A DNA stretch of 64,000 nucleotides from Alkalispirochaeta sp. (GTDB lineage: Bacteria; Spirochaetota; Spirochaetia; DSM-27196; Alkalispirochaetaceae). Shown piece by piece: positions 32,801-38,800 of this stretch (position 1 is its first letter; each line of letters begins with the position of its first letter). The stretch is taken from positions 1-64,000 of the forward strand of contig CBDESZ010000013.1 of the NCBI GenBank assembly GCA_965242725.1, read 5' to 3'. A program made the position numbers.

Positions 32801-35800
32801 TGGGGCGTTTGTGTATGGTGTGTGTGCCGTGGTTGTATATGTCGTTCCTGCCCCGTCATCGGTACGCAACTCCGGCAAAAACGCCCAGACCGATGACAAA
32901 CATGATCAGCACCATCCTGAGGTCGGGGGTGAGGGCGTGCAGCCTGTGGGCGAGCGCTTTTGCCCGTCTGGTCACCACGACGCGGTAGACAACGTACCCG
33001 AGGACCACCGTCTGTCCCGCTTCCACCAGTTTACCCGTTGAGAAGATCGACTCCGGTACTGCGGCGGCGGCCGGGAGGGGGGCAGCCGGAGGCGCGGCGG
33101 CCAGCAACTCGCTCCCGTTGATGAGCTCCGCGAGGAATCGGATTGCCTGTCGACCGAAGACGCCGGAAAGCACACAGAGAAGCGCCAGCACCACCACAGG
33201 CAGATGGACGGCGGGACCCGGACGGTGGTGATGTGAGCCGGCACCACGCTCCGGCCCGGGAGCGACGATACGGCCGAGCTTCAGGAAGGACGCCACCGTT
33301 CCGACGGATGCCACCGAAAGCAGGACTGCGACAACGGAGGCTCCGTACCGCCCTGGTACTCCTTCATAGGCGTGATAGAGGGCGGCTCCTACCATCTGCT
33401 TACCCGCAAATCCGTTGAACGGCGGAATACCCGCTATTGACGCGGCACCGACGACAAAGACGATCGCCAGGAGGGGAGATCGCCGTCCTATGGGGTTCAT
33501 GGTATAGAGGTTTCGATCATTGTTCATATGAATCGCGCTTCCCACCACCAGAAAGAGGAGACTCTTGAAAAAAGCGTGGTTCATGGCGTGAAAAAATGCC
33601 GCCGGTATGGAGAGCAGGGACAGCGCACCGAAAGCGGCGAGGACGTATCCCATTTGCGAGATTGAGTGATACGCAAGCAGGCGCTTGGCGTCGCTCTGGG
33701 CAAGGGCCCAGATGACGGCGGTGACCGCCGTAATTCCCCCCACCCACATCAGCAGGGGCATCAAATAGTTGGCCTGGAATATGCCGAGGAGCCGTACCAT
33801 TGCAAAAAAGGAGATCTTTATGAGCACGCCGGAAAGTACGGCGCTGACGGGATGGGGAGCGTAGGCGTGCGCCTCGGGAAGCCATGTGTGAAAGGGTATG
33901 AACGCCGTGCGCACGCCGATTCCCACCACCAGGGCAACCACCGCCAGGCGGATCGTCACGGAATCGCCGGCGCGACCGGCGGCAATGGCCTCTTCCATTT
34001 GCGCCAGGGACAGGGACCCGAAGTCGCGATAGAGCAGAAAGACTCCAAACAGAAAGAAGAGAATACCCACTGAGCTCAATATGAGGTATTTCAGGGAGGC
34101 AAGCAGACCTGCGTCGGTCCGGTCGTAGGCGATAAGGACATACGCGGAAAGGGCGATGATTTCAAAACCGACAAACATTGTGAAGACGTCGGCGGTGAGG
34201 ACCACCACACTCATTCCCGAGACGAGCATCATGAAAAAGAAGGAAAAGGAGGGCCCGTATTCGCTATGACTCAATGCGGCAATTCCGGAGGCCATCGCAA
34301 TGACCACCACCAGAGCGGACGACAGCCACGCCAATCCGTCAAGATGCAGAACGATAGCAACCGGGGCGGGCCAGCGACCGACAATGTGATAGATCTCTTC
34401 CCCTCCCCGCACATCGGGAAGCAGCGTGCCGAGTATGACCGCCATGACGACGAGGGGCGCGAGGGCTGCTGCGGAAAAGAGTGTACCCACAACCCTGTTT
34501 CGGGACAGAAGTTTCCCGATCAGTGCGAAGGAGGCGCCGAAAAAAGGAAGAAACAGCAGCAGGGAAATGCTATGTATCACGTTTCCACACCATCCGTTCG
34601 ATTTCCCGGGCGTCCAGCGTTCCAAAACGGCGGTACAGCCGGTATACAAGCACGAGAGACATGGCGACGACACAAATGCCCACGACGATGGCCGTCAGCA
34701 TGAGCGCCTGGGGAATCGGATCGACGGGGACGCCGTAGGCACCTCCCGACAGATCACTGCCGATCGGCGCGGTATCTCCCGACAGACTGCCGAAAAAAAT
34801 AAAAAACATGATAATACCGCTGTTGGCGATACTCAGTCCCACGATCTTTTTAATGAGGTTTGTCTCACCAATGACGCCCCACAGACCGACAAGAAAGATC
34901 GCACCGATGAGAAACCACGTAATCTGCTCCATCATCACCGTTCACCAAAGAGATGGAGAGAAATGAGGCTGACGCCGGCGGCAACCTTGAGTCCGATAAG
35001 CATGTTCAGCACAAACATCGACCGGGCAATAACCATCCCCACAACCGCAACAAGGAGAAGGGTATAGCACACCCCCTCCAGCCACGCCATGCGCCGCCTG
35101 GGCGCCACCCCTTCCGCAGCGTCGATATCGCGCCCCATGGCCAGCAAAATGACCCCCGAGGCGATCACCACCCCGCCCTGAAAACCGCCGCCCGGCGACA
35201 CGTCGCCGTAACTGACGAGATAGAGGCCGAAGAGGAACATATACGGCGCGAGTTTCCGGACGACCACATCGAGACTGTCAGTCTTTCTCATCCTTCAGTC
35301 ACCTCTCCCCTTTTTATCCACAAGAAAGGTCACCCCCGACACCGCCAGGAGCAGAACCACCGTTTCGCCGAGGGTATCAAAGGCGCGATATTCAAGATAG
35401 ATCGACGTGACGAGATTGGTCGCGCCCGTCTCCTCCGCGCCTCGCTCGATGACGTACTCACGGAGAGGCGTGCTTCGGGGATGGTCACCCATCAGGGCGA
35501 CGACCAGAAATGCCGCCACCACGGCGATCGCACCGAGTTCAATGAGCCGTCGAATCATCACGTTTCCGCGTCTTGAAGACGGCCCATATGAAGACGATCG
35601 TACCGATACCGGTACCCACCGCCGCCTCCGTCAATGCAACGTCGGGCGCTCCCAGAATGAAGAAAAAGAGGCAGCTCACGAGACTGAATACCGAAAGGAG
35701 GATCACGCTTACCAGCAGATCGGAAACGCGCAGGGCGATGATAGCCACCACGAGCATGAGCAGGAGGAGCACATTAGTCATCGCCGTCCTCCTTCAACCG

Positions 35801-38800
35801 TCGGCGGTCCCAGTAACTTCGACGCCACGGCACAACTCCCGCTTCCCAGGCAAAGCGGGCGATGATATGCGCCGCGATGGGGCTGGTGACAAAGAAAAAG
35901 ACGGTAATGACGGCGATCTTGCCGGTCATCGGCGTCAATCCCGAGACGATCATGGTTGCGATAAAAACCGAGAGAACCGATGTGGTGCTTGCCGTGGAAG
36001 AAGCCTGCAGGCGGGTATAGACGTCGGGGAAAATGAGGACCCCGAGATTTCCCATGATGCCGAAGAGCACCCCAAGGACGAGAAAAAAAAGAATCATGCC
36101 GTCTATGACCATTACGCCTCTCCTGAATCACGACGCGAGAAATAGCGCGCCATCGCCAGTGTTCCGATAAAGCCGAAAATATCGTACACAAGGGCAACAT
36201 CGAGGTAACTGCTCCGTCCCTGTCGGACCGCAATAATCACGAGAATCGCCAGAATCTGGGCGGAGACCATGTTCAGGGCGGTCATGCGGTCGGCAACGGT
36301 GGGCCCGATAAGCACCCGCACCAGACTGACGACGATCGATCCGATGAGAAACCAGACCATGTAGAGCAGGGCACGACCGACAAGGACGCTCATATCCAGA
36401 CCCGCTTCAGCAGCGACTCAAACCGACCCGCTATGAGGGACGACGCATATTTCGAGTGGGTGGTGCGGGAGTCGAGCCAGTGGACGATCAGGTGATCATC
36501 GTCAATGAGAAGGGTGATCGTGCCGGGAGTAAGGGTGATGGAGTTGCCGAGGGTCACCCGGGCGATATCACTTCTCAGACGGGTACGGAAATGGACCACC
36601 CCCGGATTGATACGCCCACGGACGATATTCCACAGAACCTGAAAGCTGGAAACGTACATCTGATAAATGAGAACGACCGTAAAGATGAGAAGGTAATGGG
36701 GCCGCGGCATGTGGGACCGTCTGGCCGCCTCATCCTCTTCAATGAAGAGGCGGAAGGTGATGACGGCGACGATGATGCTGTGCACAAGCCCGATCATGAG
36801 AGACCGGAGAGAGACGTTCCAGGTAAAGAGCACCCATCCGGCAAAGAGGTAGACCGTCGTCAATCCGATTCGAGTCAGATTCCATCGAATCTCACGATTC
36901 ATCTTAACCGCCTTTTGTCTCTCGCCGGGCAAAGAGATCGATTACTTCTTCCGCGGTGGCGGCGTTGAGAAGCCCCGCCTTGAGGGTCTCGTCATGGAGC
37001 AGGCGGGAAAGACGACTCAGGAGGCGCAAATGCTCCGAATGGGCTCCTTCCGGGCCGACCATGAGAAAAAAGAGGTGTACCGGCTTCTTGTCTACAGCGT
37101 CGAATTTGACGCCCTTCCGGTGGCGGCCAAAGGCGATGAGTGTATGGTCAACGGCATCGGAGAGGCAGTGGGGTACGGCGATTCCGCCGCCGATACCGGT
37201 GCTCATCATGGACTCACGTTTTATGACCTGCTCGGTGATGCGTTCCGGGGCATCCGTCTTTCCCGCGTCCGCGAGAAGCGCTACAAGTTCGGCGATGATT
37301 TCCGGTTTCTTCTTACCCTCTATGGCCAGGGACACACATGATGCATCAAGGACTTCACTGATCGCTTCCATTATTCATCTCCTCCACCTACGAGTCCAAC
37401 GGCAAAATCGACGGGTACCGTAAAGAGTATTCCCGTTCCCGGAGAAGACAATCCTCCGCATATATCATCGAGAAGGGCATGGAGTCGCTCCACCGCATCA
37501 CCGTCCCTGACGACGGAAAAGATCGTCTTGTTGTACGGCTTGTTTCCCTTCATAAACTCCTTGAAGTCGGCAAAGAGAGGGACTTCGTAGGTGAGAAACC
37601 GCCCCATCCCCTCGGAATCGAGGATAGTTGCTCCCTCGATACCCGCTTCCACATACGCTTCCAGTACCTGTTCCAGGAGTTCCTCCCTGTTGAGGACGAA
37701 TATCACCAGTTTCATAGTCCCATACCGCTCTTGGACAAGGAGTATAAAGGGCCTCTCCCGTTGTGCCAACGTTTTTTTGTCGCCCGTACCATTTGCTCAT
37801 TGGGACGCCCTTTTTTATATTCACACGAGGAGGAAGCCTGTGGCAGCAACACCATCGATCATGCGGGAACTGGGGGTCAAAGCACCGTCCTTTTCCCTTC
37901 CCGACACATCGGGAACAACGGTATCTCTCGCCGACTATACGGGGCAACCGCTCCTGGTTGTCTTCATATGCAACCACTGTCCCTTTGTCCGGCATATCGG
38001 CAGGGAACTGGGACGGAAGAGTACCGAATTTGCAGGGAGAGGCGTCGGCGTCGTACTCATAAGCTCAAATGATGTCGAGTCCTACCCGGAAGACGCTCCG
38101 GACAGAATGGTCCACTTCAGGGATGAGTTCGGTATCACCGTGCCCTACCTCTACGATGAGAGTCAGCAGGTGGCAAAGGCGTATCAGGCGACGTGTACAC
38201 CCGACTTTTTCCTCTTTGATTCCGACCATCGCCTCGTGTATCGCGGACAGTTTGACGACGCCCGCCCGGGCAACGACAGCCCCGTCACGGGCGCGGACCT
38301 GCAGGATGCGGTTGATGCACTCCTGGACGGCCGTCCAATGCCGAAGGAACAAAAACCGAGCATGGGCTGCGGCATCAAGTGGAAGGAGGGCAACGAGCCG
38401 GCGTTCACGCCGATCGCATAGGATACCGGGCGCAACGACCGCGCCCGGCGCCCGGCGGGGCTGCCTCAGTGAATCGCCGAGGCGCCTTTTTTTCGCTCCA
38501 GCAGTCGATACTTCACACTCAGCATCGCGGGAACGACCACAAGGGTGGTGATCGTCGCAAAGGAGAGGCCGTAAAGCATCGTCCATGCAAAGGCCTTCCA
38601 GAACTCGCTCGATTCGCTGCCTACCACCACATGCAAAGACCGAATGTCAAAACTCACACCCACCGCCATGGGAACGAGGGCGAGAACGGTCGTCAACGCG
38701 GTGAGAATTACCGGTCGGAGACGTACCTTTCCCGCCTCAACGACGGCGGTGCGCCACTCCATCCCTTCCCTGATCATTTTATGGGTGTAGTCGACGAGGA

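Follow-up and report, generated by a model that had tools for sequence, protein, structure and literature searches.

A PtsN-like and a P-II-like protein encoded with an Mrp antiporter probably switch sodium/proton exchange in a salt- and alkali-loving spirochaete

The window analysed here, a stretch of 64,000 nucleotides from the genome of an Alkalispirochaeta species, contains a tightly coupled operon of ten genes on the minus strand (32856-37715), delineated from Pfam matches and sequence (Table 1). Two genes for signalling proteins, P-II-like and then PTS_EIIA_2, precede the antiporter genes mrpE-F-G-MbhD-MbhE-B-C-D. The stop codon of the P-II-like gene and the start codon of the EIIA gene share a single nucleotide (TAATG), and the EIIA stop codon TAA lies 1 nt from the mrpE ATG (TAAGATG), in agreement with the survey's finding that an EIIA gene sits directly upstream of Mrp genes on the same strand. 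The locus given in that survey, 34935-37371, is real and covers EIIA to MnhB only; because the P-II-like gene precedes EIIA with an overlap, the unit extends beyond it.

Table 1. Features of the P-II-like/EIIA/Mrp operon, with positions in the window.
Feature	Position	Strand	Basis
Candidate sigma-70-like promoter ahead of the P-II-like gene, TTGGCA-17-TATACT	37741..37769	-	10/12 consensus matches
P-II-like signalling protein (114 aa), encoded by the operon's first gene	37371..37715	-	Pfam P-II, E 2.4e-4, 21.8 bits
PtsN-like PTS EIIA_2 protein, 155 aa, His68 predicted phosphorylation site	36904..37371	-	PF00359, 121 bits
MrpE (MNHE), 170 aa from ATG 36902	36390..36902	-	PF01899, 114 bits
MrpF	36112..36393	-	PF04066, 62 bits
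MrpG	35774..36112	-	PF03334, 73 bits
MbhD-like subunit (MrpA C-terminal part)	35539..35781	-	PF13244, 74 bits
MbhE-like subunit	35295..35561	-	PF20501, 35.6 bits
MnhB/MrpB-like subunit	34935..35291	-	PF04039, 68 bits
MrpC (NuoK-like)	34570..34938	-	PF00420, 82 bits
MrpD-like antiporter subunit	32856..34673	-	PF00361, 213 bits

The start of the P-II-like gene was taken as the ATG at 37715. The putative promoter was assigned from its consensus match; it is the sole strong site within 31500-38200, a region in which the number of promoter-like sites found, three, is no higher than shuffled sequences yield (mean 2.8). No Rfam element was found in the operon leader. Among the proteins of the cluster, the MrpD-like one is the sole large Proton_antipo_M subunit; where it truly starts is uncertain, since its longest ORF shares 104 nt with mrpC. 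The gene that follows it encodes an EamA transporter, and an MrpA N-terminal homologue is therefore absent. The cluster is a stand-alone, Mbh-type Mrp Na+(K+)/H+ antiporter with one large antiporter subunit.

The best solved relatives of the EIIA protein are PtsN structures (2A0J, E 1.4e-19; 1A6J; 3URR), and its GIAVPH motif aligns to GIAIPH of E. coli PtsN, which bears out its earlier description as an EIIA(Ntr)-type protein; it scores 89 bits against the NCBIfam PtsN equivalog, below the cut-off of 138.7. His68 is invariant in 72 orthologues, R52/E53 and H114 are conserved, and the phosphorylatable histidine is kept in all nine EIIA_2 paralogs of the genome. Candidate phosphoryl donors are present: the genome encodes HprK, three HPr paralogs (one within the window) and four proteins of EI type, one of them a GAF-EI of 761 aa. 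Pfam detects no DNA-binding domain in either the EIIA or the P-II-like protein of the window, and both are under strong purifying selection.

The Pfam score of the P-II-like protein lies below the cut-off of 25 bits; P-II was the protein's only Pfam match, and NCBIfam returned none. An AF2 model (pLDDT 80.4) shows a beta-alpha-beta-beta-alpha-beta arrangement with a long loop at residues 34-62, and all top Foldseek matches to this model are GlnK, GlnB or GlnZ (probability 1.00). The modelled fold is that of P-II. The protein shares 71-91% identity with its relatives, and among those aligned loop 33-68 hardly varies, with the invariant T-loop motif PLFADF...MKGNKPYNKTI. Of the operon's proteins it is the best conserved, with a mean column identity of 81%, compared to 71% for MrpE, 61% for MrpG and 57% for EIIA. 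It lacks residues used for ATP by canonical P-II proteins, its GTGILF segment aligning to GDGKIF of GlnB-2; that its ligand is a nucleotide is therefore uncertain.

Searching the whole genome returned exactly nine PF00359 matches, the number and contigs reported previously, and Pfam assignments of their neighbours likewise reproduced the reported surroundings. A single EIIA belongs to a sugar system (EIIC-GAT > EIIA > EI > HPr on C27). All three PF00999 (Na_H_Exchanger) genes adjoin an EIIA: on C5 the antiporter gene precedes EIIA by 2 nt, on C25 EIIA overlaps the following antiporter gene by 4 nt, and on C22 two EIIA genes lie ahead of the antiporter gene. One EIIA also stands beside the genome's only stand-alone Mrp, and one at the V-ATPase operon, which ends in V-ATPase B > D > Usp > EIIA (C4), where EIIA has no P-II-like partner. 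The proposal that each major Na+/H+ system owns a private EIIA consequently holds for the three PF00999 genes and the stand-alone Mrp, and fails for an NhaC-family gene on C16 and for a second Mrp-like cluster (an MBH-like complex) on C20, neither of which has an EIIA nearby. Given nine EIIA among roughly 4000 genes, about 0.01 adjacencies to the three CPA genes would be expected by chance; we infer that the pairing lies far beyond chance, and its conservation in other genomes likewise speaks against coincidence.

Relatives of the P-II-like gene were compared at the best 80 of at least 220 public loci, which are close kin mostly from one phylum, so that the counts are not independent events. 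Mrp genes (mrpE-F-G...) lie directly downstream on the same strand in 80/80 of these best loci, and EIIA is found between the two in 77/80; in the remaining three operons (L118, L124, L125) the P-II-like gene directly precedes mrpE, and EIIA is therefore dispensable for this type of Mrp. The view of EIIA as the partner of Mrp stands, and it had overlooked the P-II-like protein, which is both more constant and more conserved. Beyond Spirochaetota, record titles place such loci in Aegiribacteria, Fermentibacteraceae, Moduliflexus, Vecturithrix, Aerophobetes and one deltaproteobacterial MAG. Within the order, cross-comparing matches by eye, 53 of the 56 stand-alone P-II-like genes among the matches listed have MNHE about 0.9 kb downstream, and EIIA lies next to MNHE in at least 61 of 99 genomes, matching the 62 of 98 given before. 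A second, independent arrangement occurs at another stand-alone Mrp type, where EIIA is divergent from mrpE at a distance of about 130 bp (at least 10 genomes; 4/4 in a detailed check). EIIA was also present at 9/10 V-ATPase loci, and was next to a cation transporter in none of three distant relatives checked from other phyla. The counts of 77/80 Mrp and 9/10 V-ATPase loci, with 18/18 CPA loci (below), support EIIA paralogs as conserved operon-level partners of cation transporters.

Natural fusions join the same parts. The C5 'EIIA' (274 aa) consists of EIIA_2 and a P-II-like domain (HMM E 4e-21), and a C22 paralog can be aligned to it over the whole length (E 8e-22), so that two CPA-linked paralogs of this genome are EIIA fused to P-II-like. 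At E<=1e-5 the family of such fusions comprises 425 members, and in 18/18 full-length loci the fusion gene starts 2-25 nt behind a CPA antiporter gene; one protein (P0121) is the reverse fusion, P-II-like-EIIA. In relatives, Na_H_Exchanger-X-EIIA_2 fusions were confirmed in 6/6 long ORFs tested and 12/12 complete loci, and the separate EIIA and CPA proteins of C25 align to the corresponding parts of one such fused protein (E 4e-23 and 1e-64). An AF2 model of a natural EIIA-P-II-like fusion reached a pTM of 0.60, too low to place the two domains in a fixed contact with confidence. EIIA_2 is additionally fused to a diadenylate cyclase (EIIA_2-DAC, 434 aa).

We consider it fairly probable that a two-input module, combining PTS phosphorylation with a P-II-type sensor, gates these antiporters by direct binding. 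The small cytoplasmic EIIA and P-II-like proteins would together control Mrp post-translationally, as a module dedicated to it. The regulatory PTS (GAF-EI or EI, then HPr/NPr paralogs) would phosphorylate His68, and EIIA would therefore report the PEP/energy-carbon-nitrogen state; the P-II-like protein would report a second signal via a bound ligand, acting through its invariant, enlarged T-loop. Either or both may switch the antiporter on or off by binding to it, with the cytoplasm-exposed MrpE/MrpG tip as a plausible docking site. The fused EIIA-P-II-like protein would be the same module serving two CPA antiporters, and EIIA alone, free or transporter-fused, would serve the third.

The P-II-like protein may instead regulate Mrp alone, with EIIA modulating it, much as PipX or uridylylation modulates canonical P-II, and never touching the transporter. 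Its presence in 80/80 rather than 77/80 of the best 80 of at least 220 loci, including three P-II-like > mrpE operons, its far higher conservation and the occurrence of both domain orders among fusions would fit this reading, which is a sub-case of the direct-binding model rather than a contradiction of it. We regard it as unlikely, given that EIIA alone is divergent from mrpE in another Mrp type and is fused to CPA antiporters with no detectable P-II-like domain. Moreover, PtsN of E. coli, when unphosphorylated, inhibits YcgO, a CPA1 antiporter, and binds directly to its C-terminal CorC domain (PMC11808508).

Control could also be exerted on expression, EIIA (with or without P-II-like) signalling whether it is phosphorylated to a regulator that binds DNA or RNA and sets transcription of the antiporter operons, with the position within the operon reflecting autoregulation only. 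EIIA_2 domains occur as regulatory modules in PRD-type transcription activators, and the first EIIA of C22, whose gene immediately precedes those for EIIA-P-II-like and CPA, is fused to HTH_17 (HTH_17-EIIA_2), which points to transcriptional control at C22 rather than control of transporter activity. For the system as a whole this is quite unlikely: the two proteins of the window lack a DNA-binding domain, the leader holds no Rfam element, EIIA_2 is fused to the transporter polypeptide in relatives, as suits activity control, and the E. coli precedent is direct binding.

Signalling in reverse, in which the pair senses the antiporter or the local Na+/H+/K+ state and informs the PTS and targets such as c-di-AMP synthesis or K+ channels, appears decidedly improbable. 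PTS phosphoryl flow normally runs from EI to EIIA, and a separate, often fused paralog for each transporter is the design of a local effector rather than a global reporter; EIIA_2 as an input domain on diadenylate cyclase, the numerous EI and HPr paralogs, and a P-II-like loop that is invariant even where EIIA is missing, as fits a sensor of a universal signal, speak for it. That the adjacency is meaningless, with small genes hitch-hiking or an annotation artefact, is barely credible, being contradicted by overlapping or abutting codons, conservation (77/80 among the best 80 of at least 220, 18/18 and 9/10 loci), several independent gene fusions and strong purifying selection on both proteins.

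The direct-binding model resembles control of K+ transport by E. coli PtsN (YcgO/CvrA, TrkA, KdpD) in its use of a PTS_EIIA_2 regulator with a phosphorylatable histidine outside sugar uptake. Unlike the one global PtsN of E. coli, nine paralogs exist here, most in cis with or fused to one transporter; candidate targets include the multi-subunit Mrp and the V-ATPase operon, and a P-II-like protein accompanies EIIA, separately or in a fusion. LacS carries a fused C-terminal EIIA domain, which HPr phosphorylates and which adjusts transport (PMC10710835). The Na_H_Exchanger-X-EIIA_2 proteins of relatives are likewise secondary transporters with a C-terminal EIIA, although of the Mtl/Fru/Ntr rather than the Glc type, on another transporter family, and for cations rather than sugar.

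Mrp and CPA antiporters are not known to work as trimers. GlnK-AmtB and SbtB-SbtA are P-II-type systems of transporter regulation by T-loop-mediated blocking, and the known P-II-regulated transporters are trimers (PMC10710835); a GlnK-type mechanism is therefore not directly transferable. The present operon shares with these systems a small P-II-fold protein encoded right beside the transporter genes and best conserved in a long T-loop. The protein described here differs in its sub-cut-off Pfam score, its B-loop (GTGILF versus GDGKIF), a longer T-loop with its own invariant motif, and its coupling or fusion to EIIA. PstA/DarA, which binds c-di-AMP, and SbtB are also P-II-like and divergent, and sense a nucleotide second messenger (PMC4475381, PMC4316997). 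The present protein is similarly divergent, in a genome that also encodes EIIA_2-diadenylate cyclase, and had no sequence match to the PstA/DarA family in Pfam or NCBIfam.

Our literature search for EIIA or P-II-like regulators of Mrp found no paper describing one. MrpE has a cytoplasm-exposed ferredoxin-fold domain within a conserved, negatively charged tip, and the excerpted MrpE account mentions no cytoplasmic regulator (PMC7419157). The cluster shares its subunit families with Mrp and the MBH membrane module, in the order of MbhA-H, and is distinguished from them by its single large antiporter-like subunit and by the two signalling genes in front.

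The EIIA protein is encoded within a run of ten close-packed genes (table). The stop codon of the P-II-like gene and the start codon of the EIIA gene have one base in common (TAATG), and a single nucleotide lies between the EIIA stop codon and the start of mrpE. The survey's finding that EIIA stands directly upstream of the Mrp genes is thus borne out; the interval it gave, 34935-37371, does span EIIA to MnhB, but it misses both ends of the unit, which covers 32856-37715 on the minus strand. A candidate sigma-70-like site just upstream of the P-II-like gene is the one good site of the region. 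Rfam detected no leader riboswitch, either across the whole window at the gathering score or within 37650-38000 at E<=1. Pfam detected no PTS permease in the operon, and the next gene after it encodes an EamA transporter.

Genes of the Mrp operon, listed from the upstream end
Gene product	Coordinates	Strand	Remarks
P-II-like protein	37371-37715	-	114 aa from ATG
PTS_EIIA_2 protein	36904-37371	-	155 aa
MrpE	36390-36902	-	Pfam
MrpF	36112-36393	-	Pfam
MrpG	35774-36112	-	Pfam
MbhD-like subunit	35539-35781	-	Pfam
MbhE-like subunit	35295-35561	-	Pfam
MnhB	34935-35291	-	Pfam
MrpC	34570-34938	-	Pfam
Proton_antipo_M subunit	32856-34673	-	Pfam; sole large one of the cluster

All eight remaining genes carry Pfam matches to the Mrp subunit set (E, F, G, MbhD/E, B, C and D), combined in one operon without a redox module. 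Their order is that of the MbhA-H module of membrane-bound hydrogenase as tabulated in PMC7419157, whose subunit equivalences make MbhD/E the C-terminal part of MrpA. Since the MbhA-H order is present but no redox genes follow, the operon is, judged by its gene content, a stand-alone Mrp antiporter of the Mbh type.

Several other features of the window were observed. The intergenic region that holds the candidate Mrp operon promoter is shared with a divergent gene for an AhpC/TSA-type peroxiredoxin (~37850-38421). Beside this region, at 38466-42670(-), are a 1034-aa ORF and, upstream of it, a 356-aa ORF, whose translations, read by eye, look like an RND-type efflux pump and its membrane-fusion partner. 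TctA of a tripartite tricarboxylate transporter is represented by two ORFs, 177-605(-) and 869-1375(-), each of which matches a different part of the profile; this may reflect a split or frameshifted gene or an assembly error. At 53457-63961, two AllG-like genes (oxamate carbamoyltransferase), a carbamate-kinase-like gene, amidohydrolases, an AtzD/TrzD ring-opening amidohydrolase and TRAP/NMT1 transport genes form a cluster that looks like a degradation pathway for a nitrogen-rich ring compound.

The EIIA protein scored 121.3 bits against the PF00359 profile (cut-off 27), and the nearest solved structures are those of PtsN from Neisseria, E. coli and Burkholderia. His68, aligned with the phosphorylatable His73 of E. 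coli PtsN and thus the predicted phosphorylation site, is invariant across 72 orthologues; its motif, GIAVPH, aligns to GIAIPH of 1A6J. The histidine is also kept in all nine paralogs of the genome, in the EIIA of the type-C Mrp and in the transporter-fused domain. The NCBIfam PtsN equivalogs were not reached (TIGR01419, 89.3 vs 138.7 bits; NF008145, 71 vs 221), and a slightly higher score was obtained for the fructose-type IIA domain TIGR00848 (107.8 vs 103.5). Because it falls below the equivalog cut-offs, the protein was filed as PtsN-like rather than as PtsN. Linkage to rpoN is the classical proteobacterial context of PtsN (EIIA-Ntr); the context here is the Mrp operon instead. A search with this EIIA as the single query returned seven loci, of which three distant ones are not beside cation transporters. 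The genome encodes three HPr-family proteins, one of whose genes adjoins an HPr kinase gene, and four EI-type proteins, including a GAF-EI of 761 aa; these are candidate phosphoryl donors for EIIA. One HPr-family gene is an orphan within the window (14503-14799(-); 83.5 bits), 22 kb from the Mrp operon and adjoined by neither EI nor EII.

The product of the first gene fell under the gathering cut-off of PF00543 (21.8 bits vs 25; E 2.4e-4), and its weak sequence matches in the PDB are to GlnB/GlnK (E 0.008-0.2). An AlphaFold2 model built from 72 orthologues (pLDDT 80.4, pTM 0.75) displays the beta-alpha-beta-beta-alpha-beta topology of P-II, with a long loop (residues 34-62) at the T-loop position between strands 2 and 3. 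The top Foldseek matches of this model were all GlnK, GlnB and GlnZ (probability 1.00, TM 0.54-0.61), so that the protein is predicted to have the P-II fold, ferredoxin-like and with a T-loop. Canonical P-II proteins bind nucleotide through a B-loop and C-terminal basic residues. At the B-loop, the GDGKIF of A. fulgidus GlnB-2 (3NCP) is aligned to GTGILF in the P-II-like protein, which makes canonical ATP binding doubtful on sequence grounds. The P-II-like protein is the most conserved of the operon, with a mean column identity of 81%, compared to 71% for MrpE, 61% for MrpG and 57% for EIIA. Its Lys-rich loop (33-68) is near-invariant: DSEGMG..L..E.PLFA.F...MKGNKPYNKTI.

At least 220 relatives of the P-II-like protein were found in a scan of one genome per species, and the loci of the best 80 (71-91% identical) were fetched and searched by tblastn with the ten proteins of the window. 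Among these 80, mrpE-F-G and further Mrp genes lie directly downstream on the same strand in every locus, and EIIA stands between the P-II-like gene and mrpE in 77. The exceptions (positions 5001-5900 of L118, L124 and L125, loci from Bacterium UASB270, Vecturithrix and Aerophobetes, respectively) have the P-II-like gene followed by mrpE without EIIA. The loop is unchanged in these three operons, which weakens its candidacy as a motif for EIIA binding. By their record titles the 80 loci are mostly from Spirochaetota, the others carrying the MAG labels Aegiribacteria, Fermentibacteraceae, Moduliflexus, Vecturithrix, Aerophobetes and a deltaproteobacterial MAG; as close relatives, they do not represent independent events.

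Within the order, 82 of 99 genomes hold a P-II-like match at E<=1e-10. Cross-matching by eye placed MNHE ~0.9 kb downstream, on the same contig and strand, for 53 of 56 stand-alone copies; the remaining three are at contig ends. An EIIA_2 match falls in between for at least 38 of the 53, with 150 of 653 matches listed. At least ten genomes have another arrangement, with EIIA divergent from, and ~130 bp away from, mrpE of another stand-alone Mrp type. The two arrangements together place EIIA beside Mrp in at least 61 of 99 genomes of the order, in line with the 62 of 98 reported earlier for adjacency of EIIA and MNHE. Those MNHE loci of the order that score highest are MBH-like, and they lack an EIIA gene within 1.5 kb.

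The assembly comprises 34 contigs and 4.34 Mb (92% complete), and a whole-genome search returned exactly nine PF00359 genes, the number that the survey's finding had given. As it had also stated, one belongs to a sugar PTS (contig C27, EIIC-GAT > EIIA > EI > HPr). All three PF00999 genes of the genome are adjoined by EIIA: Na_H_Exchanger > EIIA with a 2-nt gap on C5, EIIA > Na_H_Exchanger with a 4-nt overlap on C25, and HTH_17-EIIA > EIIA > Na_H_Exchanger on C22. On C4, a V-type ATPase run ends in EIIA after a Usp gene (B > D > Usp > EIIA). This order is kept in nine of ten orthologous loci, the tenth of which begins at a contig end; such EIIA orthologues were found in only 10 of the 98 other genomes of the order, none of which belongs to the genus that the window comes from. 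The pairing is therefore confirmed as an observation, but the claim that each major Na+/H+ system owns an EIIA is overstated, since the NhaC-family gene on C16 has no EIIA anywhere on its contig. NhaA was not found in the genome. C3 carries a lone EIIA surrounded by carbohydrate and lipid genes.

Two paralogs are fused to an enzymatic or a DNA-binding domain. On C18, a 434-aa protein (C18:435067-436371(-); L016:7068-8372) combines an N-terminal PTS_EIIA_2 domain, its histidine kept, with a C-terminal diadenylate cyclase (DAC) domain that is closest to the DacZ type. In other bacteria, the second messenger c-di-AMP controls how K+ and osmolytes are transported, and this fusion would tie its synthesis to the PTS phosphorelay. 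On C22, the leading gene of the EIIA pair (L014:7561-8262(+)) encodes an excisionase-type HTH_17 DNA-binding domain fused to EIIA_2, and may be a PTS-controlled transcription factor for the antiporter locus. Upstream of and divergent from that locus is a gene for a Castor/Pollux-type channel with RCK/TrkA_C domains (L014:5497-7455(-)).

The second MNHE match of the genome lies in a cluster on C20 (L181:5786-13215) that encodes E, F, G, MbhD, a fused MbhE-MnhB, C and a 1085-aa ORF with two Proton_antipo_M stretches. It was considered as an antiporter without a regulator and rejected, because NuoH-like and NuoB-like genes follow on from it, which marks it as an MBH-type complex. This MBH/Ech-type cluster contains no EIIA or P-II-like gene; genes for DUF1576 and GAF proteins precede it.

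When every ORF of the genome was searched with a profile built from the P-II-like orthologues, one further match emerged (residues 165-264, E 4e-21), within the 274-aa "EIIA" beside the C5 antiporter (45% identity by tblastn). The 278-aa EIIA of C22 aligns with this fusion end to end (E 8e-22), and the two have a PLFA[DT]F motif in common. At E<=1e-5 the EIIA-P-II-like family numbers 425. Among the 120 listed, lengths range over 259-276 aa, every name is that of a PTS IIA protein only, and PF00543 is precomputed on one. More than 400 proteins annotated as "PTS sugar transporter subunit IIA" have a P-II-like domain that the databases do not recognise, and their annotation needs correction. A CPA antiporter gene is immediately upstream in 18 of 18 full-length loci, including one from a Cloacimonadales MAG. 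An AlphaFold2 model of the fusion shows one EIIA and one P-II-like domain, with the T-loop disordered; at a pTM of 0.60, it gives no confident domain packing. The reverse order is found in P0121, a 264-aa P-II-like-EIIA protein that is 78% identical to the window protein and was among four returned by a word-based search for longer P-II-like-domain proteins, which is no census of architectures.

EIIA is also fused directly to antiporters. All six long EIIA_2 ORFs of relatives that were tested consist of Na_H_Exchanger, ~120 aa and EIIA_2, and the same fusion is present in 12 of 12 complete loci, all from Spirochaetota. On C25, the antiporter and the EIIA encoded upstream of it align with the two halves of such a fusion. 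The intervening ~120 aa form a conserved cytoplasmic domain, here termed domain X (residues ~360-480 of the fusion, e.g. L170:1093-1491); the C25 antiporter ends in this domain as well (L012:9400-9828). Domain X has no Pfam family, no Atlas match and no match to the P-II-like HMM at E<=1 genome-wide. By analogy with the CorC domain in YcgO, it may be an EIIA docking domain.

Operon coupling, conservation, fusions and precedents make a dedicated two-input switch, in which the P-II-like protein and EIIA would act on the antiporter through protein-protein contact, the best-supported model. Precedents are provided by PtsN-YcgO in the portion of PMC11808508 consulted, and by GlnK-AmtB, SbtB-SbtA and LacS-IIA in passages of PMC10710835. 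A plausible docking site would be the cytoplasm-exposed ferredoxin-fold domain of MrpE, together with MrpG; according to sections of PMC7419157, this region is conserved and forms the most negative patch on the cytoplasmic face. We infer, purely from charge, that the Lys-rich loop of the P-II-like protein could meet this patch. A complex prediction with MrpE, MrpG, EIIA and the P-II-like protein (64-72 rows per alignment), run without controls, scored 0.01 against a mark of 0.32, a result that counts neither for nor against binding.

Three alternatives were weighed. That EIIA acts only through the P-II-like protein appears unlikely; the divergent EIIA/mrpE arrangement, as confirmed in four of four fetched loci, has no P-II-like gene. 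Control of transcription instead of activity would fit the HTH-EIIA fusion, which is found at one locus, and we regard it as slightly less probable again. Reverse signalling, towards the PTS, is the least probable of the three.

The two-input switch can be extended, tentatively and with somewhat less than even confidence, to a model in which one two-sensor module, EIIA plus an ultra-conserved P-II-like subfamily, controls both Mrp and CPA antiporters by direct binding. Two unrelated architectures, one multi-subunit and one single-chain, would then come under a single module, supplied either by a coupled gene pair or by a single fusion protein, with the domains in either order. The P-II-like subfamily would bring its own invariant T-loop, and a PEP-dependent phosphorelay, possibly with a nucleotide second messenger (c-di-AMP), would be wired into the Na+/H+/K+ homeostasis of alkaliphiles.

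Life at high pH and high salt depends on Mrp antiporters, which also form the evolutionary core of complex I and membrane-bound hydrogenases. If true, the model would provide the first known cytoplasmic regulator of Mrp and an experimental handle on how an electrogenic Na+/H+ exchanger is throttled by energy and nutrient state. It would likewise define a new P-II-like subfamily whose target transporter is not a trimer, a first for regulators of the P-II type; the portion consulted of a 2023 review of transporter regulation (PMC10710835) notes that P-II control appears restricted to trimeric ones. PtsN-type control would no longer be confined to a single K+/H+ antiporter of E. coli but would become a widespread, hard-wired design. 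Full-text literature searches found no report that links EIIA or P-II-like proteins to Mrp, none of EIIA-P-II or CPA-EIIA fusions, and no paper on a dedicated protein regulator of Mrp activity; a term search of the 2026 PTS-Ntr review PMC13104625 met neither Mrp nor paralogs in the text it covered. The literature searches did yield work on YcgO in E. coli and reviews of a general kind, and on this basis the module is rated not as categorically new, but as a variant of PtsN-type and P-II-type transporter control.
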